A stretch of 53,551 bases of DNA from an uncultured Caldilineaceae bacterium (GTDB lineage: Bacteria; Chloroflexota; Anaerolineae; 4572-78; J111). The position numbers were made by a program, and so were the translations under genes. The notes below the pieces were generated by a model. It was not told where the DNA came from, made no database searches, and saw only the letters and a program-made list of their open reading frames with translations. How positions within the stretch are numbered: the stretch's first letter is position 1; the number at the start of each line of letters is the position of its first letter. Location of the stretch: contig CAYOXS010000001.1 of the NCBI GenBank assembly GCA_964407935.1, positions 15,324-68,874 on the forward strand, read 5' to 3'. Shown one piece after another: positions 3,601 through 33,098 of the stretch.

Positions 3601-4920
3601 AAAAATTTTGTTGGACTCAAACACCACATCGTCGCGGCGATAAAATTCGGCGGCCAGTTCCGGGGCAAAAAAATCGCTGTCGGTTTTGCCCAGCAGCTTG
3701 TTTTTGGCATAGCCCAGCACCCTGGCGTTGGCCTGATTCATGGCAATCCAGGTGTGGTGGCGGTCTTTAATAAAAATGGGGTCGGGGATGTGATCAATCA
3801 CGGTTTGCAGAAAACGGCGGCTGTGTTCGGCTTCGGTGTACAACCGCGCTTTTTCAATGGCCGCGCCGGTTTGCGAGGCCAGCAGCGACAGGGTGTACAA
3901 ATCGTTTTCGTTGAAGGCTTGCGGGTTAGAAAAGTGCAGCACCTCGATAGCGCCCACAATTTTGTCCTGGCTGTGAATGGGCACATTGAGCACCGAGCGC
4001 ACGGTTTGGCCAAAATTAAACTTTTTGGCCAGCGGATGCTCCGGCCAGTTGGCGGCCAGCACCGCCTCGTGGGTTAGCACCACGTGGCCGCTCAGGCTGG
4101 CGGTGGCTGGTTCGATGGTGTTAACGTGCAGCCCGGCGGGCGGGCGATAGGCCGCTTTAATTTGCAGCGTCTGGCTTGAAGCATCAAAAAAGCGCAGCAG
4201 GCACGCATCGGCGACCACCAGTTTGGCGCTGAGGTCAACAATATCGGCCAGCAATTTATCAAGGTGATGGGCGTTGCTGATTTGCAGGTTGATGCTGTGC
4301 AGCGTGATCAACTGTTCAAGCTGCTGGTCGGCGCTGGCGTAGAGGATGGCGTTTTGCAGGGTGTTGGCCAGTTGGACGGCCACGCTGTTTTGAAAAAGCC
4401 GCACAAACTGCGGGGTGAGCTGCGGGGCCGATGGCTTTACCAAAATAGCGCCCACAATTCGGCCCCGGTTGAGCAGCGGAAAGGCGGCTTCGGTGATGTC
4501 TGCGTCTGCGCCGGCCGGCTGCGGCTCCTGCTGGAGAATGGCCCGGCCAACCAGCGACTCGCCATCGATTTTGATTTTTTGGCCGGCCGGGGAGTCGTCG
4601 CCGGCGGCGGCGCGACATTCGGCCCACTTTTCGGTGCGGGTGGTTAAAAAAATGAGCACCTGCGCAAAGCCAAAGTGGTTTTGGATAATATTGGCCGAAA
4701 TATCCAGCAGTTCATCCACGTTGGCTATTGAACCGGCGGCGTCTGAAATAGCCGCGGCTGTTTCCAGCAGCAGTTCCTGCTGGCCGGCCAGCTCGGATAG
4801 CTGGCCCAGCCCGGCCAGCACCGGCCCCAGCGATTGCTGGCTGTCTGCCGGCAGGCCGGCGATGGCTTGGGCCAATTGGTCAACCCGGGTTTGAAGTAGT
4901 TCTGAGACTTTGCTGCTCAT
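622..4920 (-). CDS. Giant multi-GAF protein (about 7 GAF domains plus one PAS) with no recognisable output domain
   Basis: 1432-aa ORF preceded by GAGGGA before the ATG. GAF-type modules recur, each ending in motifs such as PDTHSEMALPLISRDEVLGAITVQS...EDITMLQTMADQLANAL. One PAS module is present (IPDPIFIKDRHHTWIAMNQANARVLGY). I could find no H-box, HATPase, GGDEF, EAL or HTH segment by eye. Confidence 0.9.
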   Translation of the reverse strand: MSSKVSELLQTRVDQLAQAIAGLPADSQQSLGPVLAGLGQLSELAGQQELLLETAAAISDAAGSIANVDELLDISANIIQNHFGFAQVLIFLTTRTEKWAECRAAAGDDSPAGQKIKIDGESLVGRAILQQEPQPAGADADITEAAFPLLNRGRIVGAILVKPSAPQLTPQFVRLFQNSVAVQLANTLQNAILYASADQQLEQLITLHSINLQISNAHHLDKLLADIVDLSAKLVVADACLLRFFDASSQTLQIKAAYRPPAGLHVNTIEPATASLSGHVVLTHEAVLAANWPEHPLAKKFNFGQTVRSVLNVPIHSQDKIVGAIEVLHFSNPQAFNENDLYTLSLLASQTGAAIEKARLYTEAEHSRRFLQTVIDHIPDPIFIKDRHHTWIAMNQANARVLGYAKNKLLGKTDSDFFAPELAAEFYRRDDVVFESNKIFEHEDKTLWADNAEHVAYTRLIPIPGEGGETEYLLGLSHDVTERRAHEAEREQFVAEMSALYTGTQQIATSLSERQIFTALLNQIRRYDPCQIAAYRIRSVHDEPIWLELRDSWTKPGSAAGPAPAQIYLPESPLRDILSAADAVFVEDIAADPRLSAEQRGCFAPAGAHSSAILPLSFIGQKIGVVLVHFTTPASFPEVTRRFWLAMIDQAGMALSNRQLIQEAAYRAIQMETAAEVVRAASSLVDLPSLLKSAAALMLDRFDLYFAGIFLVDGSGEWANLMAGTPPAGPELLAAEYRLKLDDESPIGRCILHRQPNLALDVGQEAVVFNQPYLPETRSEMALPLLYHTKAIGAITLQSRDQAAFSREDIIFLQTMADQLANAIENAMLFQRAQQEIADRQRAEEGLLMALERTESLYRIGNAIASAAREQVLYETVLVEYLRLLNIQPAYGSVLRFEHAKDFSKVRALVVKGRPVPSNLSFSAQQDTVGRHLIEHKTPLVIDDVRRHPLTKTSPRFWQQDEAVQSLVFIPMIMQNTVIGALAVGAEGSGYAFSQNDVEIGQVVADQLTIWLENRELLRAINYRTQRLQTAAEVSQAASSILDVDELINTSVNLIRNSFGFYYVGLFLVDEAREWAVLRAGTGKAGRIQIARKHRLKIGGESMIGWSVANRKARIALDVGEEAVRFVNPVLPDTHSEMALPLISRDEVLGAITVQSTERNAFSNEDITMLQTMADQLANALTNARLFEHVARAQKEAEERLHETAALQQVSQQLAGTLDIDDILDIFFKACISEIGFEYVMLSMVEPASQQIKAWGGVGLSENQLARAVQPLDGGDIMADIVRSGKTEIISGWDPRFNQELYDVEGHANWVRLFTPVVLRHENVGLVEAGFNRSLTATVTDTHVRFLKALISQTVLALDNAKRYRASQQAARREALIKEITTRVRASTNLDTILQTTVKEVGNAIANKRAYIHLAAPPKSNGDSRTGGPANE

Positions 4921-4932
4921 AAGCTGTTCCCT

Positions 4933-7900
4933 CTACGACGACGCATCGCCGTTGCGTTTGGCGGTTTGTGGCGGCAGTTGCAGGGCAATGCGCCCCTGCG
5001 ATGTGCCAATCACTTTGCCCAACTCGGTGATGGTGGTTTTCATAATGTCGTTAACGTCGGTGGCGTTGCGGATTTTGCCGGTAATTTCACGGATAATCTC
5101 TTCGCGGCGAGCCCGTTTCTGCGAGTCATCCAGCAGGCGGATGTTTTCCAGCGTGACAATCATCTGCCGGCCAACCGTGGTAAAGAAGCGAATCTGGTTG
5201 GCGCTCATCTTTTGCAGCGGGCTTTTGTAGCTGGCCATAAAATAGCCCAGCCGCTCGTGGTAGGCCGTTAGCGGCACAACCAACTGCGATGAAATTTGCA
5301 GTGCGGCCAGAGCTTCGCGCATTTGGGCCGAAAGGCGCGGGTCGGTTGCTACGTCTTCAACTAAAAACGCTTCGTCGGATGAAATTTCATGTTCCAAAAT
5401 AAAGTCCGTCACTTTGAAGCGGCTGCCGGGAGCCAGAGCCGGCTGGCCGTCGCTGCTCCAGACGGCTTTCACTTCAACAAAGGGATCGGCCGCGCCGGGC
5501 TGCGTTTGGTTATAAATAAAGATGGTGGCCGCATCGACGCCGGTGGTGGCCATTGAATTGATGGCCAGCCGGTAAACCGTATCTTCATCGCGGGCCGAAG
5601 AAATGGCCTGGGTGAGCAGGTACAGGGTTTCCGCTTCTGACAGGGCAATTTGCGATTGGGTGAACAGTTCGGCGTTTTTGATGGCGTTGGCCAACTGGTC
5701 GGCCATCGTTTGGAGCATGGTGATGTCTTCGTTAGAAAAGGCCAGCCGTTTGGTGCTTTGCACGGTCACCGCGCCCAGCACCTCGTCGCGGCTGATCAGC
5801 GGCAGGGCCATTTCCGAGCGGGTATCGGGCAGCACCGGGTTGACAAAGCGTACCGCCTCTTCGCCCACGTCAAGGGCAATCCGGGCCTTGCGCTGGGCCA
5901 CGCACCAGCCAATCATCGACTCACCACCGATTTTGAGTTTGTGGTTTTTGGCCAGTTGAATGTTGCCCGCTTCACCGGTGCCGGCTTTGAGCACAGCCCA
6001 TTCGCCGGCCTCATCGAGCAGGAAAATCCCAACGTAGTAAAAGTCAAAATGGTCGCGGATGAGGTTGACCGAGGTTTCGATCAGGGCGTCGATGTTGAGG
6101 ATGGAGCTGGCCGCGCGCGAGACCTCGGCCGCGGTTTGCAGGCTGATGGAACGGTACTGGGCTTCTTCCAACAGTTGCCGGTTTTCCAGCCAGATGGTGA
6201 GCTGATCGGCAATGGCCTGACCAATTTCAACATCTTCGTCAATAAACATGTGGTCGGGGTTGGTCGCGTCGATGATGATGTCGCCCACCAAAGTGCCGCG
6301 AATGAGCAGCGGCAGCACCAGCATGTGCGTTACCTGCTGCTGGCTGCGGGTGTCTCGGGCCGATTTGACCAGCGGGCTTTCGGCCGGGTTGTTGATGAGC
6401 AGCGGCCGGGGGTCCTGCCGGAGTCGGTTGAAAATCCGGTCTTCGGAAACGGGTAAAATGAGTTGGGGCGGCGCCGGGCTGCCCTCAATAAAACGCGCTT
6501 CGGCCACGTTACTGTTGGCCGCCCGGTTAAAGAGCATAATTGCGCCCTGCTGCAAGCCCAACAGATTCAGGTATTCGCCCAAAACGGTTTCAAAGGTGCT
6601 GCGGCGTTCGGTGGCGGTAGACAGGGCGGCGCTAATGCGGAACAGCGTTTGGGTGCGTTCCAGCGTGCGCCGGGTTTCGCTGATCAGGCGTTCGCGTTCA
6701 AGTTCGCGCTGTTTGATGTGGGTAATATCCTGGATGATGCCAATGAGATAGTCCGGCCGGGTTTGGTTGGCGGTGAGCGCCAGCGGCACTTTGCGGGTAT
6801 ACAGGGTGCGGGTGCTGCCCGAAGCGTCGGTGATGGTTTCTTCGGTTTCGTGCGGCTCACCGGTGGTGAAAACCTGGTTGTCCTGCTCCCAAAAGAAATC
6901 GGCTTCGGCGGTGTTGGTCAGAAAATCGTAGTCGCTTTTGCCCAGAATTTCTTCTTCCGGCAGGCCAAAAATACCCTGGGCAAAGCTGGTGTTCACCACC
7001 ACCCAGCGATGCTCCCGGTCTTTGATAAAAATGGGGTCGGGGAGCTGGTCGATGATGGTTTTCATAAACGTCTGGCTTTCGCGGACGGCCTCAAACAGCC
7101 GGCTGTTTTCGATGGCGTTGGCCGCCAGCAGCGCCACCGAGTCGAGCAGCGAAATGTCGTCGTTGCCAATACGGTGGCCGGGCCGGTCATCGTATATTTC
7201 AAGCAGGCCGATGACTTCATCGCGCAGCAAAATGGGCACAAAGGCCATCACTGTACCGTGATGCCGGGTGAGATAATCAAACTCGCGGCCGGCGGCTTCC
7301 GGGTCGTCGGCGTAGATGATGAGTTCCTGTTTGGTGGCAATTACTTTGGTCAGGTTGACAAAATCGGCGGCGGGCGCGCGCTGGCCGGCATCGACTTTAA
7401 AAATTGAGCCTTTGCGAGCGTAATCGCTGATGGTGTACAGGGTGTCGCCGGCTTCCAGCAGGGTCAGCGCGCAGCGGCCGATGTGGAGCATTTCGGCGGT
7501 TTCCGAGACAAGAATGTGGGTGGTCTGTTCCAGGCTGAGGGTGCTGCTGATGCGCGTGCCAATGCGATAGAGCATGGCCTGTTCGTGCAGGCGGCGCTGG
7601 GTTTCTTCAAACAAGCGGGCGGTTTCGAGGGCGGTGGTAATCTGATCGGCCATAATTTGCAGCGCTTCGATGTCTTCGGCGGCAAAGGCGTTGGGCTCAA
7701 CGCTCTGCACATCGAGCGCGCCAATGGTGACGCCGCGGGAAATCAGCGGCAGGGCCATTTCTGAGCGGGTATCGGGCAGGAGCGGGTTGTTAAAATGGAC
7801 GGCGTCTTTACCCACGTCGAGGGCAATGCGCGGCTTGGCGTGGAAGGTAACAAAGCCCACAATTGAGTTGCTGCCCACGGCCAGCCGGTGCGGCCGTTCA

Positions 7901-9756
7901 ACCATAATTTTGCCCACATCGCCGGTAGAGGCTTTAACCACGGCCCATTCGCGGCGGTCGTCAACCAGAAAGATGGAAACGTGATAAAAGCCGAAGCGGT
8001 CGCGGATCAGGTTAACCGTCAGCCGGAGCACTTCGCTCAGATCGGTCAGGCCGGTTACGGCCTCGCCCACGGTGGCCACGGCGCGGAGCTGTTCGGCCCG
8101 GCGCTCGGTTTGTTCCAGCAGCAGCCGGTTTTGAATGGCAATGGTCACTTGATCGGCCATGGCCCGGGCCAGGTCCGTTTCCCGCTGAGAAAAGCGGCGC
8201 TGCTCGTCGGCAGAGACAACGGTGAGCCAGCCGATGGTTTCGCCGCGCATAATCATGGGCGCTTGCAGCACCGCGCGGATGGGTTTGGCCAGAGCCGCGT
8301 GGCTAAATTCGGCCAGGGGGATGTCATCCGGCAGCCGGTTGGTGACAAAAGGCTGGCCCGATAGCATAAGCTGCTGGCTGGGGTTGCTCCGGTTAAGCGG
8401 GAATGAGAATCGCTCAACCGGTTGAACATCGCCCTGATTCATGTAAACGGCCAGCTCGCCAAACTGCCGGTCATCAGAAATTCGGACGACCGCGCCCTGC
8501 TGCAAGCCCAGGCTGTAAACAAATTCAACCAGCGCTTCCTGTAGCACGGCCTGAACGCCGCCGGCGGCGGCCAGCACCCGGCCGGCCCGGTAGAGGGTTT
8601 GGGTTTCGGCCAGGGCGTCTTCGGTGCGCTGAATCTGGTTAACGTGTTCCAGGGCGATGGTGGTTTGGTTGGAGAGAGTCTGGTAAAGGGCCAGTTCGCG
8701 TTCGTTGAAAATATGGTGGGCGGCGTGGCCAATCAGCAAAATGCCAACCACGTGAATCCGCTGAATGAGCGGGTAAATGGCAATGCTGCTCAGGCCAAGC
8801 TGGTGCAGCAAGTCGCGGTCGGTGGCCGAGAGGCGCTCGTCTTTGGCCAGATTTTCAATAACCAGAATATCCTGGCTGGCCGCCAGATCGGCCAGGGCCG
8901 GATAGTTTTGCAGATCAAGATGTTGTTTGGTGAGTTTGTGGACCGATTTTGGCGATTTAACATTGCCCACAAACGAGACTTCGGCGTGGGTGGGCAGGTT
9001 TTTGCCGCTGAGGCCGTAGCATACCAGCATGGCGCACATATCTGCGCCAATGGCCGCCACACTGTGCTGGATGGCGCTATGCACGCTGCGCAGGTTTGAT
9101 GTGCCGGAAAGGTGGCGGCTGATGTCGATCATCAGGTGCGCTTCGGTCAGGCTGTCTTTAATATCGGTCACCTGATAGGCGTTTTCCAGCGCGATGACAA
9201 TGTGGTCGGTGAGGTTGCCCAGCAGGTTGAGGTCCTGTTCGTCAAAATGGTTGGGCTGCGGATGCACAAAGGAGAGCGCGCCCCGCAGCCGGCCGCGGCT
9301 GATTTTGATGGGGGCGCAAATAGCCGAACGCACTTCGATGGTTTGGTCCGGGTGTTTCACGTCGAGCCAGCGGTCATCGGTTTGGGTGTCCAGCACCAGG
9401 GCCATCTGGTCGGTTTGCTGCACCCAGGCATCCAGCCCCTCGTCCAGCACCCGGCGCACCAGTTCGCGCCGGGCCAGGTCGTCCAGATTGTTGCGCTCGG
9501 GGTAGGTGCTTTTAAAATAAACATCGCCGGTGTCAGACAGGAGATGGATTTCGCCAGAGGTGGCCCCCAGATGTTGGGCAAAATTTACAGCTCTGGCCAC
9601 AATGGTTTCAAAATCAAGGGCGGTGCTCAAAGAAACGCTCACATCATGCAGCAGGTTGGCCCGCTCTACCTGATGTTGCAGTTTGGTGTTTTTCTGGGTT
9701 AGCTGCTCAAGTTTGGCTTCAAGCTGGCTGACCAGTTCCTGAGTCGGTTCATTCAT
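4933..9756 (-). CDS. Giant multi-GAF protein (about 8 GAF domains plus one PAS) with no recognisable output domain; paralogue of 622-4920
   Basis: 1607-aa ORF. It carries repeated GAF modules (PDTRSEMALPLISRGVTIGALDVQS...; PDTRSEMALPLISRDEVLGAVTVQS...) and one PAS (LPDPIFIKDREHRWVVVNTSFAQGIFGL). It is colinear with the C-terminal ~900 aa of the downstream gene. Only 12 nt separate it from that gene. Confidence 0.9.
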   Translation of the reverse strand: MNEPTQELVSQLEAKLEQLTQKNTKLQHQVERANLLHDVSVSLSTALDFETIVARAVNFAQHLGATSGEIHLLSDTGDVYFKSTYPERNNLDDLARRELVRRVLDEGLDAWVQQTDQMALVLDTQTDDRWLDVKHPDQTIEVRSAICAPIKISRGRLRGALSFVHPQPNHFDEQDLNLLGNLTDHIVIALENAYQVTDIKDSLTEAHLMIDISRHLSGTSNLRSVHSAIQHSVAAIGADMCAMLVCYGLSGKNLPTHAEVSFVGNVKSPKSVHKLTKQHLDLQNYPALADLAASQDILVIENLAKDERLSATDRDLLHQLGLSSIAIYPLIQRIHVVGILLIGHAAHHIFNERELALYQTLSNQTTIALEHVNQIQRTEDALAETQTLYRAGRVLAAAGGVQAVLQEALVEFVYSLGLQQGAVVRISDDRQFGELAVYMNQGDVQPVERFSFPLNRSNPSQQLMLSGQPFVTNRLPDDIPLAEFSHAALAKPIRAVLQAPMIMRGETIGWLTVVSADEQRRFSQRETDLARAMADQVTIAIQNRLLLEQTERRAEQLRAVATVGEAVTGLTDLSEVLRLTVNLIRDRFGFYHVSIFLVDDRREWAVVKASTGDVGKIMVERPHRLAVGSNSIVGFVTFHAKPRIALDVGKDAVHFNNPLLPDTRSEMALPLISRGVTIGALDVQSVEPNAFAAEDIEALQIMADQITTALETARLFEETQRRLHEQAMLYRIGTRISSTLSLEQTTHILVSETAEMLHIGRCALTLLEAGDTLYTISDYARKGSIFKVDAGQRAPAADFVNLTKVIATKQELIIYADDPEAAGREFDYLTRHHGTVMAFVPILLRDEVIGLLEIYDDRPGHRIGNDDISLLDSVALLAANAIENSRLFEAVRESQTFMKTIIDQLPDPIFIKDREHRWVVVNTSFAQGIFGLPEEEILGKSDYDFLTNTAEADFFWEQDNQVFTTGEPHETEETITDASGSTRTLYTRKVPLALTANQTRPDYLIGIIQDITHIKQRELERERLISETRRTLERTQTLFRISAALSTATERRSTFETVLGEYLNLLGLQQGAIMLFNRAANSNVAEARFIEGSPAPPQLILPVSEDRIFNRLRQDPRPLLINNPAESPLVKSARDTRSQQQVTHMLVLPLLIRGTLVGDIIIDATNPDHMFIDEDVEIGQAIADQLTIWLENRQLLEEAQYRSISLQTAAEVSRAASSILNIDALIETSVNLIRDHFDFYYVGIFLLDEAGEWAVLKAGTGEAGNIQLAKNHKLKIGGESMIGWCVAQRKARIALDVGEEAVRFVNPVLPDTRSEMALPLISRDEVLGAVTVQSTKRLAFSNEDITMLQTMADQLANAIKNAELFTQSQIALSEAETLYLLTQAISSARDEDTVYRLAINSMATTGVDAATIFIYNQTQPGAADPFVEVKAVWSSDGQPALAPGSRFKVTDFILEHEISSDEAFLVEDVATDPRLSAQMREALAALQISSQLVVPLTAYHERLGYFMASYKSPLQKMSANQIRFFTTVGRQMIVTLENIRLLDDSQKRARREEIIREITGKIRNATDVNDIMKTTITELGKVIGTSQGRIALQLPPQTAKRNGDASS

Positions 9757-24862: not shown

Positions 24863-26011
24863 TTATCCAACTTGCAGCATTTGCCGGGGAAACAACGCGG
24901 CTTCCAGATCCGGGCGCAGCAGGCGCACCAGCGTTTCAACAAAGTAATAGTCGCCGTAAATCAGGGGGTGATCCATCCAGTTATGGGGCACAGAGCGGGC
25001 TGCTTTGAGCAAGATAGCGGGAATGCCTGTTCCCCTGGTTGAGTAATTCTGCCATAAAGAGAGGGTGATGGCTTCCGCTTCGGCGCGCCAGTGGGTGGCT
25101 AATGTCGAATCCGTTTCAGCGGCGGCCAGCTCAAGCAGGCCGGCGGCAATGACCGCTGCCGCCGACGAATCGCGGTAGGTGTTGGGAATATCCAAACTGT
25201 TGTAATCCCAAAACGGTACTTTGTCCTCCGGCGCATTGGCGATGGCGTAACGGGAAACCTGACGCGCCGTTTGGAGGAAGACCTCTTCGCCCGTCCAGCG
25301 GTAGGCTTCGGCAAAACCGTACAACGCCCAGCCTAACCCGCGAGCCCAGCAGGTGTTGTGGCTCAAGCCCTGATGGGTTTCCTGCCGCAAAAAGACGCCG
25401 GTATCGGGGTTAAAATCGGCAACCTGAGAAATGGAGCCATCGGGGCGCATTAGCACGTGGCGGCTGGTGCGGGCGTGGCGCGCGGCGATACGCCCGTATC
25501 GCAGATTTTTGGTGTGCGCACTGGCCCAGAAAAAGAAGGGCATATTCATCATCAGGTCCACATTGATGCGCCCGCGCTCGTGGGGCGGCCCATCGATATG
25601 GCCCCAGGCTTGCATATACTCGCCGCGCGGGTTGTAGCGTTGGGTAAATGTTTGGGCGGCGGCCAAAGCATCCGGCAATAAAGATTCATCGCCCGTAATC
25701 CGGTAGCCCAGCACGTTGGACAGGTAGAAGATAAAGCCGAGGTCGTGGGTGTCGGTGGTGTGCTTTAGCCAGGCCAGCTTTTGCGTCCAGGCGCGGGCGG
25801 CTGTTTCAAAGGCGGGGTCCTGGGTGTGGACAGCGGCCAGCCACAGCAGCCCTGTCCAGAAACCATCCACCCAATGGCTGGGGATACGCTTTTCTTCGGC
25901 TGTTACCCACATACCATTTTCGTAGCGTTCCGGAAAGTAGGTTAAGGTTTTAATGTTTTGGGCGGTGATTTGCAAGCTGTAATTGAGTGCTTCTTCCAGT
26001 TGATTTATCAT
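24863..26011 (-). CDS. Glycoside hydrolase family 88-like unsaturated glucuronyl hydrolase, cytoplasmic
   Basis: WVDGFWTGLLWLA and THDLGFIFY are GH88/GH105-type motifs. No signal peptide is visible. The start overlaps the upstream stop as ATGA. Confidence 0.75.
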   Translation of the reverse strand: MINQLEEALNYSLQITAQNIKTLTYFPERYENGMWVTAEEKRIPSHWVDGFWTGLLWLAAVHTQDPAFETAARAWTQKLAWLKHTTDTHDLGFIFYLSNVLGYRITGDESLLPDALAAAQTFTQRYNPRGEYMQAWGHIDGPPHERGRINVDLMMNMPFFFWASAHTKNLRYGRIAARHARTSRHVLMRPDGSISQVADFNPDTGVFLRQETHQGLSHNTCWARGLGWALYGFAEAYRWTGEEVFLQTARQVSRYAIANAPEDKVPFWDYNSLDIPNTYRDSSAAAVIAAGLLELAAAETDSTLATHWRAEAEAITLSLWQNYSTRGTGIPAILLKAARSVPHNWMDHPLIYGDYYFVETLVRLLRPDLEAALFPRQMLQVG

Positions 26012-26514
26012 TTTTGTCCCTTTATTGCTTTTTTTGTCTTTTCTGAGATCAACGCCAGAAGTACAAAAACAACTACATAGAACGCTCCAAACAGGATTGG
26101 CTCTCCCGGTAGCGGCACAGAATGAGCAGGCAAGGCAAACAGGGATATCAGGGCGCTATTTAGTGCTATGTAAATCAAGGCAACCATAAGCATAATGAGA
26201 ATATTCTTTAGCAGTTCTACTAAATAATCGCTGATCCGTTGCCAAAATGTGTTTTCGTGGGCGGGGCGTTTGGGGGCAATATTAAACATCATCCGCAGGC
26301 CCGGATTGATAATTATGATGTTGAATAACCCCATCACTAATCCCAGCGAAACTACAAAATCGATGATTGACTGTTGCGTGCCTAAATATGTGCCCCAGCC
26401 GATGAAAAAGTAGACAGCGCCGGCGGCCCACCATCGGATAATCAGGGAGATATTTCGGTCGGATAAATATTTTTGAAAACGGTGTTGTTTCATTATCATT
26501 GCCATTTCCATCAA
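26008..26514 (-). CDS. Small integral membrane protein, unknown family (168 aa, about 4 TM)
   Basis: Four hydrophobic segments (for example WWAAGAVYFFIGWGTYLG and ILFGAFYVVVFVLLALI). ATGA overlaps occur at both ends. I recognise no family. Confidence 0.65.
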   Translation of the reverse strand: MMEMAMIMKQHRFQKYLSDRNISLIIRWWAAGAVYFFIGWGTYLGTQQSIIDFVVSLGLVMGLFNIIIINPGLRMMFNIAPKRPAHENTFWQRISDYLVELLKNILIMLMVALIYIALNSALISLFALPAHSVPLPGEPILFGAFYVVVFVLLALISEKTKKAIKGQK

Positions 26515-26918
26515 GTTTTAACTACTCTGTTCCAACTGACCACCGGGATTACCAGTAACCCGGCCAGATAGATGCCGATAGAGATACTCACTAACAACCA
26601 GCTCGTTCTTACATCGGCCATTGTTAATACTTCCTGGGCTGCTACATCTGTTTGCATAATGTTTAAATATACAAACCCGGCACCTATTGCAAACAAACCG
26701 GATAGCGTAAAAAAGATCAAGCCTCTTCGTTTTTCCAATATGTAAGCATTAAATGCTGTGGTTAGCCCAAATATGACGAACATAAATAGATAAACCCCAA
26801 TTTCGTTGGCGAAAAATTTTGTAATTGCCAGAATATGGATTTGGGATGCAGCTAATTGACCCACTGCATTCACCAATAAAATACCAACGGTAATTTTCAA
26901 TACTAATTCTTTCATCAT
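26511..26918 (-). CDS. Small integral membrane protein, unknown family (135 aa, about 4 TM)
   Basis: Hydrophobic segments include ITVGILLVNAVGQLAA, VYLFMFVIFGLTTAF, LIFFTLSGLFAIGAGFVYL and LLVSISIGIYLAGLLVIPVV. The gene is translationally coupled on both sides. Confidence 0.65.
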   Translation of the reverse strand: MMKELVLKITVGILLVNAVGQLAASQIHILAITKFFANEIGVYLFMFVIFGLTTAFNAYILEKRRGLIFFTLSGLFAIGAGFVYLNIMQTDVAAQEVLTMADVRTSWLLVSISIGIYLAGLLVIPVVSWNRVVKT

Positions 26919-28009
26919 TTGCCCCCTTCCAGACGAATGCGCTCCTCAGATTCAGGATCGAAGAAATGCGCACGAGTCATATCTACATAGAATTTAAGGG
27001 TCTTTCCAACGAATTGACTGAGATTTTTTTTCAGATTCGCGGTATATGTAAAATCACCTATCTGTAGATGTACCAGCGAATGATTCCCAAGAAATTCACA
27101 GTCAATAACTTCAGCAGAAATAGCTTCTAAAGCCCCATTTGGTTCTATGCTAAAATGTTCCGCCCTGACACCCAGGATAATGCTGTCATAATTATGGGCG
27201 CCAACTATATCCAATAGGTTTTCCGGAACCCTCAGATTCATGCCAGGAGCGATAAATCGACCTTTTTCAATGTGTCCGCTAATAAGATTCATCGGCGGGC
27301 TGCCGATAAAGCTGCCTACAAACATATTTTTCGGCCAGTGATAGACCTCCGCAGGGGTGCCAATCTGTTGGATACGGCCTGCGTTCATAATGACAATGCG
27401 GCTAGCCATGGTCATGGCTTCCGTTTGGTCGTGGGTAACATAGATGAAGGTGCTGCCTAGCTGCCGATGCAATTTAGTTAATTCCCGGCGCGATTGGGCG
27501 CGTAATTTGGCATCCAGATTGCTTAAGGGTTCGTCCATTAAAATAACGTTTGCTGAACTTACAATAGAGCGGCCAAGGGCAACACGCTGGCGTTGCCCCC
27601 CCGATAAATTTTTAGGATAGCGGTTCAACTGGCTTTTCAACTGCACCACATCGGCCGCCTTCATCACTTTTTGGTGAGTTTCATCTACGTCTTTATGCCG
27701 TATGGTCTGGCTAAACCCCATGTTTTGGTACACCGACATATGTCCGTAAAGCGCATAATCTTGAAAAACCATCGAGATATCCCGATCTGCCGGGGCAACA
27801 TCATTAATGCGTTTACCGGACAAAATCATGTCTCCGCCGGATATTTTTTCAAGGCCGGCGATCATGCGCAAGACTGTGCTTTTTCCACAACCGGAAGGGC
27901 CAACGAATACGATAAATTCCCCGTGCTCAACCTCGATACTGAAATCAAAGACGGCCTGAACCCCGCCGGGATATATTTTGTCTACATTCTTCAAGATTAA
28001 TTCTGACAT
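26915..28009 (-). CDS. MalK/MsmX/UgpC-type sugar ABC transporter ATP-binding protein
   Basis: Walker A is GPSGCGKST, the signature is LSGGQRQRVALGR and Walker B is ILMDEPLSNLD. A C-terminal regulatory/TOBE-like domain follows. I prefer the ATG at 28009 (MSELILKNVDKIY). Confidence 0.9.
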   Translation of the reverse strand: MSELILKNVDKIYPGGVQAVFDFSIEVEHGEFIVFVGPSGCGKSTVLRMIAGLEKISGGDMILSGKRINDVAPADRDISMVFQDYALYGHMSVYQNMGFSQTIRHKDVDETHQKVMKAADVVQLKSQLNRYPKNLSGGQRQRVALGRSIVSSANVILMDEPLSNLDAKLRAQSRRELTKLHRQLGSTFIYVTHDQTEAMTMASRIVIMNAGRIQQIGTPAEVYHWPKNMFVGSFIGSPPMNLISGHIEKGRFIAPGMNLRVPENLLDIVGAHNYDSIILGVRAEHFSIEPNGALEAISAEVIDCEFLGNHSLVHLQIGDFTYTANLKKNLSQFVGKTLKFYVDMTRAHFFDPESEERIRLEGGK

Positions 28010-28019
28010 AGGAATATCC

Positions 28020-28448
28020 TTACCTTTGCAACAGGGATAAATCGATATTGTTTTCAACAATGAATTTCTGCCGCTCCCGGGAGCGCTTGATGCAAATTAT
28101 TGAACCGGCCAGGACCGATATACCGGTGGCCAGCAACAACGCCGCCAGGAAGACTCTCATCGACCCTGTTATCTCTGCCGGCATCCACAGGAAACGGGCA
28201 AACTGAAATGCAGCCAGGGCGATCCCGACATAGCCCCAATCCGCGGCATACAATTTCTGTCGCACAGCCATTAAAAAAGCCACCAGTGACAGCACAATAT
28301 TTACCATAATGAAGATACCTAACTGAGCATCAACATCCATACTGTTTACATAAAGAATGGTAAAGAGGGCATTCCCGCCAATGTAAAGCAAAGTCAACTG
28401 TTGGCTGATGGAATTCTCCAGAAACAATCGTTTTTCAGAGGTTTTCAT
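28020..28448 (-). CDS. Small integral membrane protein, unknown family (142 aa, about 4 TM)
   Basis: Hydrophobic segments include LTLLYIGGNALFTILYV, IFIMVNIVLSLVAFLMAV, YVGIALAAFQFARFLW and VFLAALLLATGISVLAGSII. It shares an ATGA overlap with the upstream gene. Confidence 0.65.
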   Translation of the reverse strand: MKTSEKRLFLENSISQQLTLLYIGGNALFTILYVNSMDVDAQLGIFIMVNIVLSLVAFLMAVRQKLYAADWGYVGIALAAFQFARFLWMPAEITGSMRVFLAALLLATGISVLAGSIICIKRSRERQKFIVENNIDLSLLQR

Positions 28449-28969
28449 ATCAATTTCCTCACAAGCGGGTTTCCATCTTTTAGTCTTTGACTAAAGGTTA
28501 GAATTGCAACCACGGTGAAGCCGGCCAGCAGCACTATCAAAATAGAGTGCAACACCAGGCCGGCATCAAACGCAAATGTGGAAGGCGCGTAATCTGCCAT
28601 TGGGGAGAAATCCAGCGCAAGATAGCTTTGCTTATATTTTGGAATTATTCTGAGTACCGTAATGGAATTCAGGGAAATATAGACAGTTGTACCAAGCACA
28701 AAGAGCAACCCAAATAAGCCTGGCCTGTATTTGTGCAACTCGAACATGAGCAGTACCAGGGCCAATACCACAAATATAATGGCGAGATTAAACGCCTCTT
28801 TGTTAAAAACCTGCAATTTCTTGTAATAATCAAACATTTCGGCAGTGCCATCATAAAACAAAACGTAATATTGGGTCATAAAGCCCAGGTAGAGTACAAA
28901 CAGAGCTAAAATGACGGTTTCTACCGCATAAACCAGTATGGATTGAGCTTTCATCAGGTGATTTTTCAC
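28445..28969 (-). CDS. Small integral membrane protein, unknown family (174 aa, about 4 TM)
   Basis: Hydrophobic segments include ILVYAVETVILALFVLYLGF, LAIIFVVLALVLLMF, LFGLLFVLGTTVYISL and LVLHSILIVLLAGFTVVAIL. It is the first gene after the hairpin pair that follows the binding-protein gene. Confidence 0.65.
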   Translation of the reverse strand: MKNHLMKAQSILVYAVETVILALFVLYLGFMTQYYVLFYDGTAEMFDYYKKLQVFNKEAFNLAIIFVVLALVLLMFELHKYRPGLFGLLFVLGTTVYISLNSITVLRIIPKYKQSYLALDFSPMADYAPSTFAFDAGLVLHSILIVLLAGFTVVAILTFSQRLKDGNPLVRKLI

Positions 28970-28999
28970 AATGCGCCTCCGGTGATAGACTTCTGGGTA

Positions 29000-29072
29000 G
29001 TGAGCAGAACTGTTTTCAGCGCATTCTGCTCACGGCGGAAAGGGAGAGGGAGAAAGTGGATTTCTCCCTCTC
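29000..29072 (-). other. Two strong hairpins between the binding-protein gene and the next gene (possible attenuator or mRNA-stabilising structures)
   Basis: Stem 1 pairs 29000-29009 (gtgagcagaa) with 29024-29033 (ttctgctcac). Stem 2 pairs 29044-29055 (gagagggagaaa) with 29061-29072 (tttctccctctc). Neither is followed by a U-run on the minus strand, so they are not canonical intrinsic terminators. Confidence 0.45.
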
Positions 29073-29089
29073 TCTATTCAATAAGCAAA

Positions 29090-31156
29090 CTATTGTTGAG
29101 CACCGGTCATGCGAGAATAAGCAGTGCGATAAACCTTAACATAGTTGTCCAGACCGGCATTAACGTAGAGCGCTTTCAGAGCGTCCACATTGGCCACCGC
29201 GTTATCGGCACCGGTAATGAACAGGAAAAGCTGATCCGTTTGTTCTTCGTTGATGGCCAATTGCCCCAGTTTGGCTGTTTCCTGTTCAGTTAAAGAAAAG
29301 ACCGGAGGCACCAGGCGGAACAGCGGGTTTTCGGCCTCGTAGGAGGTGGAAACAACCTCATCATTGATATACAGCGCCCAGGCATCCCAGCCACGATTGA
29401 TCGTGGTTTGCAGTTCAAACCCAATTTCTTTTTGGTAGCCAATTGGAATTTGTGAGCCGATGAAGTCGCGCAAGTAACCAGACATATCACAGTTCTTCAG
29501 TTCACAAGAGCCGTCCACCAGCCACTTATTAAACTTGGGATATTCGGTCCCATCGGGGGCCGTAAATTTTTCGCCTGCTTCCAGGCCATACGGCGGTCCA
29601 TAATTCTGGACAACATGCCCTTCTTCACTGAAGAAGTAATCAAAGAGCTTCAGGGCCGCACTGATTTCCTCTGGCGAGGCAGCCGCAGAAATGGACCAGC
29701 CGTCCGGTTTAATCACGCGGGTATTCTCATCAAAGTGGATGAATTTATCAGAACCAACGGTTGTGAGCGGCGGCAGTATTCCCACAACATCCGGGTTAGC
29801 GGCGGTGGTGGAGGCAATCCAGTCATAGGTCATAAAACCAAACTGCTGATGACCATCTTCCTTATCCTTGGAGTAAAGTGGTAAGCGGAAGTTGTCACTG
29901 GTACTCAGGTCTGCAAATTCGGAGTGAATGAGACCTTCAGAGTACAACTCGGCCAGGTACCCCACCCCTTTCAGGAAGTTGTCTTGAGCGTAAGAGTATT
30001 GCAGTTCGCCGTCTGCATCCAGATAGAAGCGAGCCGTATAGGAGTCTGACCCGTGGACACGTTGGCCGCCCCAATAGGTGATTAACCGTAAGACATCTTC
30101 ACGATACTCAGATTGGCGCACAAAGAAGGGGGAAATTACGGCGCCCTCTACCACTTTGCCGGTAGATACCTTTGAAAGCGTATTCGGTGAAAGCTCTATG
30201 ACACGCCACAGCGCCACCAGTTCGTCCATATCATATTTGGCCGTTGCGCCCAGGTACAGCTCGGATGGTTTTTTCAGGTCGGGGTAAGTTTCTGCAATGT
30301 AGGCCAGCAGGGTGTCCCGCGCCACATCACGGGTCAAGGCGCCGCCGCCGGCGCCTTCGTTCTGAAGGTCAACCACGTTGGTTGCATTCCGCTGCCAGTA
30401 GCCTTTGTAGGCGGGGGTGAGGGTGTGGGTTTCGGCTTCCAGCGCTTCATCAGAGTCAAGCAAGGCCGTGACCCAGCTTTCACGGCCAAGGAATACGCGG
30501 GCATAGTTGCCCAATTCTGCGGCGTAGGGGACGTGGTAGATGCCGCCATCGTAGGCAGTGATGGCTTTGGCGATATTGGGATTTGCTTCGAGATAGGCGG
30601 CAAAGTTTGGCATCTGATCCAGATGATCATTCAGGCGAACCATATACCCTTGCGCGCCATAGCTCATCAGCGCTTCCGCAATGCCGCTGCCACCAAACAC
30701 AACCGCGCCATTAAAGCCGGTGGCGGAGGAGACCTGGATCATTTCTGAAGAGCTTTGATCCTGAATGGTAACATCTTTTAATTTGAGGCCAAGCTGCTTT
30801 TCAATGTATTGCCAGGTGGGTTTGAGCTGGCCCTGTGAAATCACGGCGCCATCTGGCAGTTCAAGCGGGGTAGATTGTTGATAGGTGAGGGTACGTTGAT
30901 TGTTGCCCATTGCAAAATTTATATTTAACGACTCAGCCATTGCCATTTCTTCCGCTTTGGCGGGGGCGGCTTCTTCTTTGGCAGCGGGGGCGGCTTCTTC
31001 TTTGGCCGGCGCGACTTCTTTGGCAGCGGGAGCGGCCTCTTCTTTAGCGGGGGCGGGAGCCGCATCGGGATCAGACACACCGCCGCACGCTGCAAAAGCA
31101 AACACGGCCATACTCGCCAACAAAATCAATAGTAAACGTTTTGAATACTTTTTCAT
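29090..31156 (-). CDS. Large extracellular solute-binding lipoprotein of an LplA-like carbohydrate ABC importer
   Basis: 688 aa with a lipoprotein signal (MKKYSKRLLLILLASMAVFAFAACGG). A low-complexity (EEAAPAAK)n linker follows, then a large family-1-type binding domain. Confidence 0.8.
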   Translation of the reverse strand: MKKYSKRLLLILLASMAVFAFAACGGVSDPDAAPAPAKEEAAPAAKEVAPAKEEAAPAAKEEAAPAKAEEMAMAESLNINFAMGNNQRTLTYQQSTPLELPDGAVISQGQLKPTWQYIEKQLGLKLKDVTIQDQSSSEMIQVSSATGFNGAVVFGGSGIAEALMSYGAQGYMVRLNDHLDQMPNFAAYLEANPNIAKAITAYDGGIYHVPYAAELGNYARVFLGRESWVTALLDSDEALEAETHTLTPAYKGYWQRNATNVVDLQNEGAGGGALTRDVARDTLLAYIAETYPDLKKPSELYLGATAKYDMDELVALWRVIELSPNTLSKVSTGKVVEGAVISPFFVRQSEYREDVLRLITYWGGQRVHGSDSYTARFYLDADGELQYSYAQDNFLKGVGYLAELYSEGLIHSEFADLSTSDNFRLPLYSKDKEDGHQQFGFMTYDWIASTTAANPDVVGILPPLTTVGSDKFIHFDENTRVIKPDGWSISAAASPEEISAALKLFDYFFSEEGHVVQNYGPPYGLEAGEKFTAPDGTEYPKFNKWLVDGSCELKNCDMSGYLRDFIGSQIPIGYQKEIGFELQTTINRGWDAWALYINDEVVSTSYEAENPLFRLVPPVFSLTEQETAKLGQLAINEEQTDQLFLFITGADNAVANVDALKALYVNAGLDNYVKVYRTAYSRMTGAQQ
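30955..31060. repeat. Imperfect tandem repeats of about 24 nt encoding the Ala/Pro/Glu/Lys linker of the binding protein
   Basis: gcgggggcggcttcttctttggca (30961-30984) is repeated at 30985-31008, with degenerate copies up to about 31056. The translation is APAKEEAAPAAKEVAPAKEEAAPAAKEEAAPAKAEE. Confidence 0.75.
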
Positions 31157-31245
31157 TTTCTGCTCCTTTAATGGGTGAACCTATATTGAACGAAACTGTT
31201 TTTGAACGATTGATGGTATTTTCTGGTGTTAAACCTCACTTTCTG

Positions 31246-32109
31246 CTAGCCCTTTACACCGCCAACGTTGACACCCCTGGCGAAGTGACGCTGGATGTAA
31301 GGATAAATAATCAATACGGGAATAATTGAACAGACCAGCACCGCAAAGATGTATGAATCAGATGAATAAGGCAGATTGATGGGCATATCGTCAAACATTT
31401 TTTGATAGTTCTCAATCAGGATACGCATATAAACTTGCAGCGGTAACTCCATCGGGTTGGTCAGCAGCATTCGGGACCAGAAATAGGTGTTCCAGCGGGA
31501 GGTGGCATAGAACAGGGTCACAGTGGCCAGCGCTGCTTTGGACATTGGTATATAAATTTGGCTTAACAACTGAAATTCATTGGCCCCATCAATGAGGGCG
31601 GCTTCCTCGATCTCCGTGGGGATTACCTGAAAGAAACTCCGCAGCAGGATGATGTTGAAGGCTTGCACCCCAAACGCAACAATGATGCCCCACCGATTGT
31701 CTACCCCCATATTGATATAATTCAGATATAACGGAACCATACCGGCGCTAAACCACATGGTAAACACCACTAAAAAATTTATCTGCCGGCGGAATATCAG
31801 GCGCTGCCTGGAAAGCGCATACGCGCCCGTTACCGAGATTAAAAGGCTCCAGGCGGTTCCGAAGATGGTGTAGAAAAGGGTATTGGTAAAAGAAATCCAT
31901 AAACCCTTATCCTGATAAATCAACTCATAAACCTGAAAGCTTACGTCCTTGGGAAACAGGATGACTTCTCCCGCTTCGTAGGCTGCTTTGCCGCTGACAG
32001 AAGCAGAAAAGGCATAGAGTACCGGATAAAATGCCGCGGCACTAAAGGCAACAACCAGTGACACGGACAATATTTTGAAAATCAATTCGGATTTACTTAA
32101 ACGCTCCAT
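31246..32109 (-). CDS. Carbohydrate ABC transporter permease (LplC-like)
   Basis: About six TM segments and an EAA loop (EEAALIDGANEFQLLSQIYIPMSKAAL). Confidence 0.9.
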   Translation of the reverse strand: MERLSKSELIFKILSVSLVVAFSAAAFYPVLYAFSASVSGKAAYEAGEVILFPKDVSFQVYELIYQDKGLWISFTNTLFYTIFGTAWSLLISVTGAYALSRQRLIFRRQINFLVVFTMWFSAGMVPLYLNYINMGVDNRWGIIVAFGVQAFNIILLRSFFQVIPTEIEEAALIDGANEFQLLSQIYIPMSKAALATVTLFYATSRWNTYFWSRMLLTNPMELPLQVYMRILIENYQKMFDDMPINLPYSSDSYIFAVLVCSIIPVLIIYPYIQRHFARGVNVGGVKG

Positions 32110-32120
32110 AATACTGCTCC

Positions 32121-33098
32121 TTACCAGAGAGAATTGTCTGAAATTTCACGGCTGATGAAGTTAGCCCCCACTACCAATGCAAACCCAATTAACGCCTCAA
32201 ACATCCCCGCCGCAGCCCCCATTGACTGATTACCGCCTTCCAACCCAATACGCAGTACAAACGTGCTCAACACATCAGCCGTCTCATAGGTATTGGCGTT
32301 GTACAGCAGAATGACGCGTTCATAGCCTACGGCCAGCATTTGGCCTATCCTGAGCACAATCATGATGGTGAGCGTTGGCGCTATGCCGGGGAACGTTACA
32401 AAGCGGATTTCCTGCAATTTGTTGCCGCCATCCACTTTGATAGCCTCGTACAGGACCGGCGATATGCCCATAATGGCGGCAAAATAGACAATTGAACTAT
32501 ATCCGGCCTCTTTCCAGATACCCGTCATAATAAATATGGGGCGAAAATAATCAGCATTTTGCATAATCTTGGTCGTTCCATCGATGATGCCGAGATCAAT
32601 CAAGAACTGGGCAATCACCCCGGTGGTTACTTCGCCGTTAAACAACAAGGTCAGCACCAGACCCGTGATGGTTACTTCAGAAAGAAAGTGGGGTAAATAA
32701 GAAGCGGTTTGTGTAATATTACGTAGGCCGCTGTTGCTAATCTCGCTAAAAAATATCGCCAGCAGGATGGGGATGGGGAAGCCGAAAATAAACCCATAAA
32801 GACTGATCACAAACGTGTTGCGGAATGCCCGCCAAAACTGGGGCGCGAAAGGGCCACTAATTAAAGACGAAAAATTCGCAAATCCAACAAAATCACTATC
32901 CCATACCCCCAGATTGGGCTGGTAGTTTTTGAAAGCAATCAGGAGACCGGCCAGCGGTTTGTAAAACCATAAACCGTACCAGATCAAGATGGGCAGCAAC
33001 AGCAAATACAGTCGATAATCCTTTAGAATGATCAGGGTATACTTTAAAAACTTATTTTGCTCTGCGTCATCTGGTTCTACCCTCTTGTGTTGAACCAT
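32121..33098 (-). CDS. Carbohydrate ABC transporter permease (LplB-like)
   Basis: The N-terminus (YRLYLLLLPILIWYGLWFYKPLAGLLIAFKNY) is typical of LplB-type permeases. EAA loop: YEAIKVDGGNKLQEIRFVTFPGIAP. Confidence 0.9.
   Translation of the reverse strand: MVQHKRVEPDDAEQNKFLKYTLIILKDYRLYLLLLPILIWYGLWFYKPLAGLLIAFKNYQPNLGVWDSDFVGFANFSSLISGPFAPQFWRAFRNTFVISLYGFIFGFPIPILLAIFFSEISNSGLRNITQTASYLPHFLSEVTITGLVLTLLFNGEVTTGVIAQFLIDLGIIDGTTKIMQNADYFRPIFIMTGIWKEAGYSSIVYFAAIMGISPVLYEAIKVDGGNKLQEIRFVTFPGIAPTLTIMIVLRIGQMLAVGYERVILLYNANTYETADVLSTFVLRIGLEGGNQSMGAAAGMFEALIGFALVVGANFISREISDNSLW

Follow-up and report, generated by a model that had tools for sequence, protein, structure and literature searches.

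Genes for four small tetraspan membrane proteins, here called A, B, C and D and each of a new family, lie as two pairs on either side of a MalK-type ABC ATPase gene within a sugar importer operon of an uncultured Caldilineaceae bacterium (Chloroflexota). In the current view, two permeases, two ATPase subunits and one binding protein make up the whole of a type I ABC importer, and a MalK-type ATPase accompanied by four different tetraspans is, to our knowledge, not an arrangement described in the literature. Together with two permease genes (perm1 and perm2) and the gene of a solute-binding protein (SBP), the A-B-NBD1-C-D genes, NBD1 being the embedded ATPase, make up an eight-gene layout, in which a familiar kind of transporter probably carries an addition that has not been described before. 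The reading that we tentatively prefer, at a little below an even chance, is that the five genes are a co-inherited module and the obligate companion of one AlgM1M2SS/AlgQ-type subfamily for uronate-containing oligosaccharides; with the same reserve, A-D may be extra membrane subunits of one enlarged importer.

The window, that is, the whole stretch of 53,551 nucleotides that was analysed, carries the following features, all on the minus strand:

32121..33098, minus strand: perm1, an AlgM1-like type I permease with an EAA-type loop
31246..32109, minus strand: perm2, a type I permease with the EAA loop EAALIDGANEFQLLSQIYIP
29090..31156, minus strand: SBP, a solute-binding lipoprotein of 688 aa without Pfam match, its C-terminal half related to AlgQ1/AlgQ2
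29000..29072, minus strand: two strong hairpins in the SBP-A spacer (MFE -45.8 kcal/mol, z -4.4)
28445..28969, minus strand: A, a four-helix membrane protein of 174 aa, with a GTG start and GGAGG 7 nt upstream
28020..28448, minus strand: B, a four-helix membrane protein of 142 aa, its gene directly upstream of the ATPase gene
26915..28009, minus strand: NBD1, the embedded MalK/MsmX-type ATPase, 364 aa
26511..26918, minus strand: C, a four-helix protein of 135 aa, almost wholly membrane-embedded
26008..26514, minus strand: D, 168 aa, its start possibly a few codons downstream
24863..26011, minus strand: a GH88-family unsaturated uronyl hydrolase, its start overlapping the D stop (ATGA)

The ATPase open reading frame spans 28060..26915, and the start that agrees with homologues is the ATG at 28009. 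Three junctions (A/B, ATPase/C and D/GH88) are ATGA overlaps, the C/D junction is a TTGATG overlap, and B and the ATPase are separated by a gap of exactly 10 nt. A check of reading frames and junctions thus bore out the order of small-protein genes around the ATPase, the overlapping codons and the single 10-nt gap described in an earlier note on this DNA; its count of about four hydrophobic helices in each small protein agrees with hydropathy and with the helices modelled by AF2. The only long spacer within the window's cassette, of 120 nt, lies between SBP and A, and other loci have a spacer of about 90-170 nt at this position. This hairpin spacer, present in all loci, parts perm-perm-SBP from A-B-NBD-C-D, an observation that speaks against a single importer. 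A-D are single-copy in a genome that has more than 20 CUT1 permeases.

Judged by comparison of perm1, the ATPase and the SBP, the core importer lacks no part and belongs to the AlgM1M2SS/AlgQ type: perm1 matches AlgM1 (4tqu_M) at E 2e-77, NBD1 matches AlgS at E 5e-92, and the SBP matches AlgQ1/AlgQ2 at E 2e-32 over residues 352-606 only. The importer had been described as LplABC-type; it is indeed a relative of LplABC, but the perm1 match to AlgM1 refines the assignment. With two EAA-loop permeases, an SBP and an ATPase in place, A-D are, as had been proposed, surplus to a complete type I importer. The AlgM1M2SS-AlgQ1/Q2 alginate importer of Sphingomonas sp. A1 (PDB 4TQU) and the cassette both concern acidic uronate glycans and are both accompanied by cytoplasmic lyases. 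However, the solved complex contains only M1, M2, two S and Q and no tetraspan subunits, whereas cassette loci have four more conserved membrane-protein genes and so depart from an M1·M2·S2 plus Q-only composition. The cassette further differs in its lipid-anchored SBP of 640-770 aa, without Pfam match, and in an ATPase that forms a separate lineage locked between A-B and C-D. That the solved AlgM1M2SS complex works without such subunits also counts against a single enlarged importer. CUT1 importers of the Bacillus subtilis LplABC/YesOPQ type share with the cassette LplB/LplC-like permeases, large lipoprotein SBPs and pectin- or uronate-derived substrates, but their ATPase, MsmX, is unlinked and shared, whereas that of the cassette is embedded; they are sometimes accompanied by YesL/DUF624 proteins, to which about 100 members of the A-D families gave no match.

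The perm1-perm2-SBP-A-B-NBD-C-D order was found in every locus with enough flanking sequence, in about 50 loci from four phyla (29 genome loci, 18 metagenome loci and six contigs from protein look-ups were counted). Carriers belong to Chloroflexota, Bacillota, Spirochaetota and Haloplasmataceae, and include Defluviitalea phaphyphila Alg1 (Bacillota), a cultured alginate degrader; habitats are soil, sea and sediment for Chloroflexota, and sea and gut for Bacillota, with many pectin loci in Lachnospiraceae. Stop and start codons overlap or nearly touch throughout the module, and the flanking enzymes vary between loci while the cassette order stays fixed. A distant branch of 808 proteins, from pectin loci of gut Clostridia, has the identical gene order although its D is only about 27% identical. 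The arrangement of two genes, ATPase and two genes is therefore not unique to this genome, and the coupling of A-D to the ATPase that was noted in the window holds across loci in its codon overlaps and fixed gene order. In about 55 loci the module always came with the permeases and SBP; the one exception is a lone D-like gene in locus L058.

A-D are real genes: their dN/dS ratios against relatives are 0.06-0.32, indicating purifying selection, and homologues at 30-40% identity occupy the equivalent position in other phyla. For all four, positive-inside counts over 21-30 homologues per family favour an N-in/C-in topology. On its extracytoplasmic side A bears a conserved helical cap, about 60 residues long, in which aromatic and acidic residues abound (LGFMTxYYxLFYDGTxEM..YYKxLQVFN; YLxxDFS..Y), and its AF2 model, folded alone, reached a pLDDT of 93.9 and a pTM of 0.88; A and B are in frame in one locus only (L055). 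Both ends of B are cytoplasmic, a conserved N-terminus (EKxLYxxN) and a tail rich in K and R, and C has a conserved QLAxSQxHIxAxTKxF motif in which S25 and H28 are invariant. D, the best conserved of the four, has the motifs RWWxxGAVYFFIGWGT and LPGEPILFGxFY, about 55 K/R-rich cytoplasmic residues, and two invariant polar residues, R27 and E138, that lie within the membrane or close to it. For a natural read-through fusion of C and D, the model is one confident helical bundle (pLDDT 88.7), of which the pTM of 0.74 is an indirect indicator of packing, the short natural linker forcing C and D together. This model used an alignment (A7) in which natural read-through fusions were more numerous and single D sequences fewer, after an earlier one (A6), in which MAFFT had placed single C sequences onto D, was discarded. 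A profile search with D retrieved 207 representatives among 1.84 billion proteins, all short, and no D fusion was present among these 1.84 billion representatives. Protein P0172 resembles a gene-call merger of D with the lyase next downstream.

The absence of any recognised family, of an EAA loop and of a likeness to YesL/DUF624, which the earlier note had stated for A-D, was confirmed by profile and structure searches, and none of these led to a characterised family. Pfam and NCBIfam gave no family match for A-D among the window proteins; Pfam scans of each family member singly, and searches of PDB sequences with profiles, yielded no more than scattered sub-threshold matches, and for B neither a Pfam nor a PDB relative was found. 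Foldseek with the A model returned only generic four-helix bundles (E at least 0.08), and with the C-D model no significant match and no likeness to transporter membrane domains. The top matches of the A model and of half the C-D model were MS4A/Fc-epsilon-RI beta, claudin, synaptogyrin and de novo maquettes, which share four long antiparallel helices with these models; at E 0.08 or worse and 10-16% identity, they have a simple topology in common rather than relatedness. Type I permeases were rejected (no PF00528 match, no EAA motif, an hhalign probability of at most 2% against the perm1 and perm2 profiles, which do carry EAA loops), as were YesL/DUF624 proteins (no match at E <= 0.1 in 98 members scanned singly, and none at E <= 1 for the window proteins). 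An ECF (type III) importer was rejected on the lack of Pfam matches to CbiQ or S components and on an ATPase of MalK rather than CbiO type, and a type VII ABC system on the lack of an FtsX match; MacB, LolC and FtsX chains are absent from the listed top 50 Foldseek matches of both models. Paralogous pairs (A with D, B with C) or a split multi-helix protein were likewise rejected, with BLASTP E values of at least 0.38 and hhalign probabilities of 0.1-7.6% over all six pairs. With no homology among A-D or to the permeases, A-D are not a pseudo-symmetric transmembrane-domain pair. Accessory membrane subunits outside the two canonical transmembrane domains occur in other ABC machines, as LptC (in LptB2FGC), Mam/LucA (Mce) and the ECF S and T components; the likeness is one of analogy only, and no sequence or fold relation of these to A-D was found. 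Literature searches found no description of the A-D proteins. In a 2026 review of bacterial glycoside transporters, the words 'additional transmembrane' do not occur, and 'auxiliary' is used only of SusE/F, which are not ABC importers.

NBD1 has intact Walker A, Q-loop, LSGGQ, Walker B and H-loop motifs and a C-terminal OB_MalK/TOBE domain (Pfam: ABC_tran 5.5e-30, OB_MalK 2.3e-08, TOBE_2 4.4e-06), scores 427 bits against the UgpC subfamily model (cut-off 432), and has MsmX (6YIR; E 3e-107) as its best solved match. On these motifs and profiles it qualifies as a MalK/MsmX/UgpC-type ATPase. In trees, the NBD1 sequences of the two branches group in a single clade (99/98 support), separately from generic MsmX-like ATPases, and between phyla the NBD1 core keeps 64-70% identity, a level close to that of the permeases. 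Six substitutions are specific to this clade, mostly in the membrane-facing helical subdomain. A second, canonical MalK-type ATPase (NBD2) is present in four of the six pectin-type loci examined; a single machine would need no NBD2. Generic MsmX-like ATPases, which could serve the permeases and so count against a single importer, occur in nine of ten cassette-bearing genomes checked, as well as in the genomes of the window, of locus L059 and of D. phaphyphila; only G468 had NBD1 as its sole MalK-type ATPase, and its assembly, full of frameshifts, makes that case unusable.

The single enlarged importer that we tentatively favour draws on the invariant gene order, the deep pectin-type branch, the tight coupling and the fact that the module, one lone D-like gene aside, keeps to the core; on a complete EAA-loop core, an NBD1 with all catalytic motifs and a co-diversified ATPase clade; on the confident C-D bundle of a natural fusion and the lack of homology among A-D or to the permeases; and on the single-copy state of A-D despite more than 20 CUT1 permeases. 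All eight products would then assemble into one importer, in which an NBD1 dimer would power the canonical permease pair via the EAA loops, and additional membrane subunits, A paired with B and C paired with D, would pack onto this core. The A cap may point towards the SBP or the glycan chain being taken in, and the cytoplasmic segments of B and D may contact NBD1.

Alternatively, the operon may encode two machines, which we consider possible though doubtful: A-D would provide the membrane portion of a distinct, non-canonical ABC unit, powered by NBD1 and without an SBP of its own, and the permeases would be driven by an MsmX-like ATPase or NBD2. The work proposed for such a unit, equally doubtful, would be one on which the importer depends, such as uptake of a different product or an ATP-driven action, at the outer face, on the tethered SBP or the glycan chain. 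NBD1 is indeed embedded between A-B and C-D in every case, with the canonical-looking ATPase variably in the cluster or elsewhere; an ATPase variably linked or located elsewhere is the usual CUT1 pattern. Two machines would also suit the NBD1 clade, the hairpin spacer between the two gene groups and the substitutions that face the membrane partner, of which P89G, A98G and G100S occur in NBD1 only, NBD2 and generic ATPases keeping the canonical residues there. Distance correlations group perm1, perm2 and SBP on the one hand and A, B, NBD, C and D on the other, and NBD-core distances correlate with those of A and B (r 0.92) slightly better than with those of the permeases (r 0.84-0.87); this grouping, weak and drawn from points that are not independent, counts against a single importer. 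However, EAA-loop permeases are the only established partners of MalK-type ATPases, and we know of no such ATPase that drives a partner lacking this loop. A-D offer neither an EAA loop nor a recognisable coupling helix, nor a homologous pair for a homodimeric ATPase, and the C-D model is unlike any transporter membrane domain in Foldseek. NBD1 also retains, after Walker A, the LRMIAGLE segment common to MsmX and other generic ATPases, and the constant company of permeases and SBP in about 55 loci is equally at odds with a separate unit.

A bolder form of this alternative, which we regard as rather unlikely, makes A-B-NBD1-C-D a previously unrecognised ABC machine, with a MalK-type dimer on four unrelated tetraspans instead of two EAA-loop permeases, placed beside or clamping an AlgM1M2-type importer for long polyanionic glycans. 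It could open a second route of translocation or act as an ATP-driven clamp that makes import processive, and the NBD2 of four of the six pectin-type loci would then serve the permease pair.

It is improbable that A-D are not strict subunits but a membrane scaffold or an ion path for uronate uptake. A scaffold, at the same low level of likelihood, would tether the first cytoplasmic degrading enzyme (GH88, lyase, GH28 or cupin) at the importer exit; an ion path, no likelier, would let cations follow the polyanionic substrate. The gene after D is a cytoplasmic glycan-processing gene in every case, often with overlapping codons, the lone D-like gene of L058 sits directly upstream of GH28, and pectin-type D has a cytoplasmic N-terminal extension of about 60 residues. 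Also in favour are the invariant polar residues of C (S25 and H28) and D (R27 and E138), placed within or close to the membrane, and the anionic glycans with which all loci are concerned. However, the enzyme after D varies, so that adjacency may simply mark the 3' end of the cassette; Foldseek, Pfam and PDB searches found no likeness of A-D to channel or anchor families; and a dedicated ATPase lineage locked between the gene pairs is left unexplained. The notion that A-D are chance hydrophobic reading frames or functionless decaying remnants, to which the lack of known domains and a composition AT-richer than the flanks might lead, is scarcely credible, given that orthologues in four phyla keep their motifs invariant and their lengths alike, that dN/dS ratios are low and that AF2 confidence is high.

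A whole subfamily of type I importers, which serves acidic glycans of plants and algae, thus adds to the usual parts four conserved membrane proteins and an ATPase lineage of its own, in fixed order. If A-D are subunits, no larger type I importer architecture would be known, and the system would give a handle on the uptake of long polyanionic chains in bacteria without an outer membrane; if they form a second machine, MalK-type ATPases would have membrane partners of a new class. Either way, four families to which every database gives the label 'hypothetical' acquire a context and a role that can be tested, and annotation of pectin and alginate utilisation loci from gut and marine bacteria should cover A-D.

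The four small membrane proteins, here A, B, C and D, and the MalK/MsmX-type ATPase between them (NBD1, 364 aa) form part of an eight-gene cassette with the two permeases (perm1 and perm2) and the solute-binding lipoprotein (SBP) of a sugar importer. The order in the earlier note, of 174-aa and 142-aa proteins, ATPase, and 135-aa and 168-aa proteins, with overlaps and one gap, is correct in the ORF list and at the junctions:

33098..32121, minus strand, perm1
32109..31246, minus strand, perm2
31156..29090, minus strand, SBP (688 aa)
28969..28445, minus strand, A (174 aa)
28448..28020, minus strand, B (142 aa)
28060..26915, minus strand, ORF of the ABC ATPase NBD1
26918..26511, minus strand, C (135 aa)
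26514..26008, minus strand, D (168 aa)
26011..24863, minus strand, GH88

ATGA overlaps join A to B, the ATPase to C and D to GH88, C and D share a TTGATG overlap, and between B and the ATPase, whose start in agreement with homologues is the ATG at 28009, lie 10 nt. A starts with GTG, preceded by GGAGG 7 nt before it.

Both permeases match BPD_transp_1 and possess EAA loops, and perm1 resembles AlgM1 from the alginate importer of Sphingomonas A1 (E 2e-77). No Pfam model matched the SBP, the C-terminal half of which is related to AlgQ1/AlgQ2 (E 2e-32), with the likeness confined to residues 352-606. AlgQ is roughly 500 aa long, well below the AlgQ-related binding proteins of the other cassettes (640-777 aa). 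NBD1 matches MsmX (3e-107), AlgS (5e-92) and MalK, and carries the full set of catalytic motifs and an OB_MalK/TOBE tail. The core importer is complete, and A-D are therefore more than a normal type I importer needs, as had been claimed.

About four hydrophobic helices had been noted in each small protein, and hydropathy and AF2 indeed give four long helices in all of them. An N-in/C-in topology is supported by K+R counts in 21-30 homologues of each family, which are, inside versus outside, 10.0 vs 1.1 for B, 13.3 vs 0.4 for D, 5.1 vs 2.1 for C and 8.6 vs 4.8 for A. The extracytoplasmic side of A bears a conserved cap (~60 residues, many of them aromatic or acidic), B and D each have ~50 K/R-rich residues exposed to the cytoplasm, and C, in which S25 and H28 are invariant, lies nearly all within the membrane. 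The earlier view that A-D belong to no recognised family, and differ from YesL/DUF624, withstood profile and structure searches: no Pfam/NCBIfam model, including DUF624/YesL, CbiQ and FtsX, matched A-D or 98 relatives scanned singly, family profiles reached at best E 0.2 among PDB sequences, and the AF2 model of A (pLDDT 93.9, pTM 0.88) retrieved nothing but generic four-helix bundles (E >= 0.08). A-D as paralogues or permease relatives can be ruled out, since they show no homology to each other or to the permeases (BLASTP E >= 0.38; hhalign probability <= 7.6%). dN/dS of A-D against relatives is 0.06-0.32. They are real genes, representing four undescribed families.

C and D probably pack against each other. 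Several loci have them in frame with stop codons alone between them, and the natural C-D read-through fusion of locus L005 (TAG read as G) was folded with an alignment of nine read-through fusions and rows of C or D alone. The model is a continuous helical bundle (pLDDT 88.7, pTM 0.74), and is supportive only because the short linker forces C and D together; Foldseek returned neither a PDB chain at E < 0.3 nor any transporter membrane domain. The C and D genes touch or overlap in all loci except L016, an Ardenticatenaceae MAG, in which a 232-aa soluble ORF (8756-9454) lies between them, its stop overlapping the D start.

D has 175 close homologues, all called "hypothetical" save one with a JGI YvlD/DUF360-type label, and the eight-gene order is identical on contigs carrying three of them. 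The earlier note had suggested looking elsewhere for two small proteins, an ATPase and two more, and this arrangement recurs in each informative locus of 29 from a genome-collection scan and 18 more from metagenomes. The former include Defluviitalea phaphyphila Alg1, an isolate of the Bacillota, and MAGs of Chloroflexota, other Bacillota, Spirochaetota and Haloplasmataceae. Wherever flanks suffice, the genes follow one another as perm1-perm2-SBP-A-B-NBD-C-D, closely spaced or overlapping, and the flanking enzymes vary by locus (GH88, heparinase II/III-like lyases, or cupin and SDR). In locus L018 two binding-protein genes stand in tandem before A (3661-7404); in L031 each cassette gene is split into several frameshifted pieces, reflecting either a pseudogenised copy or long-read assembly errors. 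Across loci the sole sizeable spacer, ~90-170 nt long, follows SBP and precedes A. In the window it measures 120 nt and contains two strong hairpins (29000-29072, minus strand; MFE -45.8 kcal/mol, z -4.4), one with a perfect 12-bp stem, GAGAGGGAGAAA/TTTCTCCCTCTC. As an attenuator, or as a stabiliser of the mRNA, they could set the level of perm-perm-SBP relative to the genes downstream.

Against 1.84 billion representatives, the D profile found only 207 proteins (57-262 aa) and no fusions. A D subgroup with an N-terminal extension of ~60 residues (808 proteins, gut-type Clostridia and Lachnospiraceae) marks a deep second, pectin-type branch. Six of its loci encode a 195-aa membrane protein and perm-perm-SBP(700-777 aa)-A'-B'-NBD-C'-D', in which window-type profiles match A', B' and D' at 1e-13 to 1e-24 and C' only at 1e-3; GH28 and GH88/105 follow D' in 4/6. 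Four of the six also encode a second MalK-type ATPase, NBD2, directly after D' in two. The ~195-aa protein has no Pfam match and no counterpart in the window-type cassette.

L036 8645-9730, NBD2
L037 12191-13279, NBD2
L059 9679-10779, NBD2
L060 13641-14720, NBD2
L036 305-901, ~195-aa membrane protein directly upstream of perm1
L037 164-748, the same
L059 1191-1790, the same
L060 1204-1788, the same

NBD2 forms its own clade (100/100 support), keeps the canonical helical-subdomain residues, and appears specific to the cassette, since the L059 genome holds a generic MsmX-like ATPase elsewhere. A lone D-like gene (L058 2971-3534, 187 aa, ~31% identical) precedes a GH28 gene by 4 nt in a pectin locus with UxaC, a GDSL esterase, CE8 pectinesterase, KdgK, KduI and Eda; A, B, C and the ATPase do not adjoin it.

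The embedded ATPases of both branches come together as a single clade in two trees (support 97/91 in the first, 99/98 in the second), distinct from the generic MsmX-like ATPases of the same genomes, MsmX itself and NBD2. This clade has six conserved positions at which all generic and NBD2 sequences differ from it (P89G, A98G, G100S, E/D112H, D129N and F252). The first five fall between Q-loop and signature motif, which we take from established MalK structures to be the helical subdomain facing the membrane partner. Between the window and Bacillota, identity is ~70% for the permeases, ~58% for SBP, ~52% for the ATPase and 30-44% for A-D. Between phyla the ATPase core is 64-70% identical, as are the permeases, and its C-terminal regulatory domain only 25-32%, as are A-D. 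Pairwise-distance correlations, treated as weak, group perm1, perm2 and SBP apart from A, B, NBD, C and D.

The eight-gene block (26008-33098) has a GC3 of 0.40-0.58 vs 0.61-0.74 in flanking catabolic genes, and its low values extend to the binding protein and the soluble ATPase (0.48). Chloroflexota embedded ATPases nest within Bacillota, beside Defluviitalea, and D occurs in 1/4 congeners, 0/26 genomes of the same family and none of 400 sampled genomes of the phylum. GC3, nesting and patchy occurrence indicate a horizontally moved unit, acquired as a whole. The cassette is single-copy in a genome with >20 CUT1 permeases and 10 MalK-like ATPases.

We conclude firmly that A-D and NBD1 are inherited together, and that in every case the module is linked to an importer of the AlgM1M2/AlgQ type for anionic glycans. 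Our tentative preference is for one enlarged importer, in which NBD1 would dock on the permease EAA loops, with A·B and C·D as additional membrane subunits. It is the simplest explanation, because MalK-type ATPases are known only in company with EAA permeases, A-D contain neither a homologous pair nor a coupling motif, and the module is never seen alone. That A-D and NBD1 constitute a separate ATP-driven unit working beside the importer is a less likely but serious alternative; the second canonical ATPase of pectin-type loci, the NBD1-specific changes in the helical subdomain and the hairpin-bearing spacer that parts the two sets of genes speak for it. A role of A-D as scaffold or ion path is improbable. 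Literature searches that covered alginate transport and D. phaphyphila, and pectin transport by Firmicutes, turned up no description of A-D, and term searches in a 2026 review of bacterial glycoside transporters gave no mention of extra ABC importer membrane subunits. We regard the cassette as an importer of known type to which a conserved set of five genes, so far undescribed, has been added.
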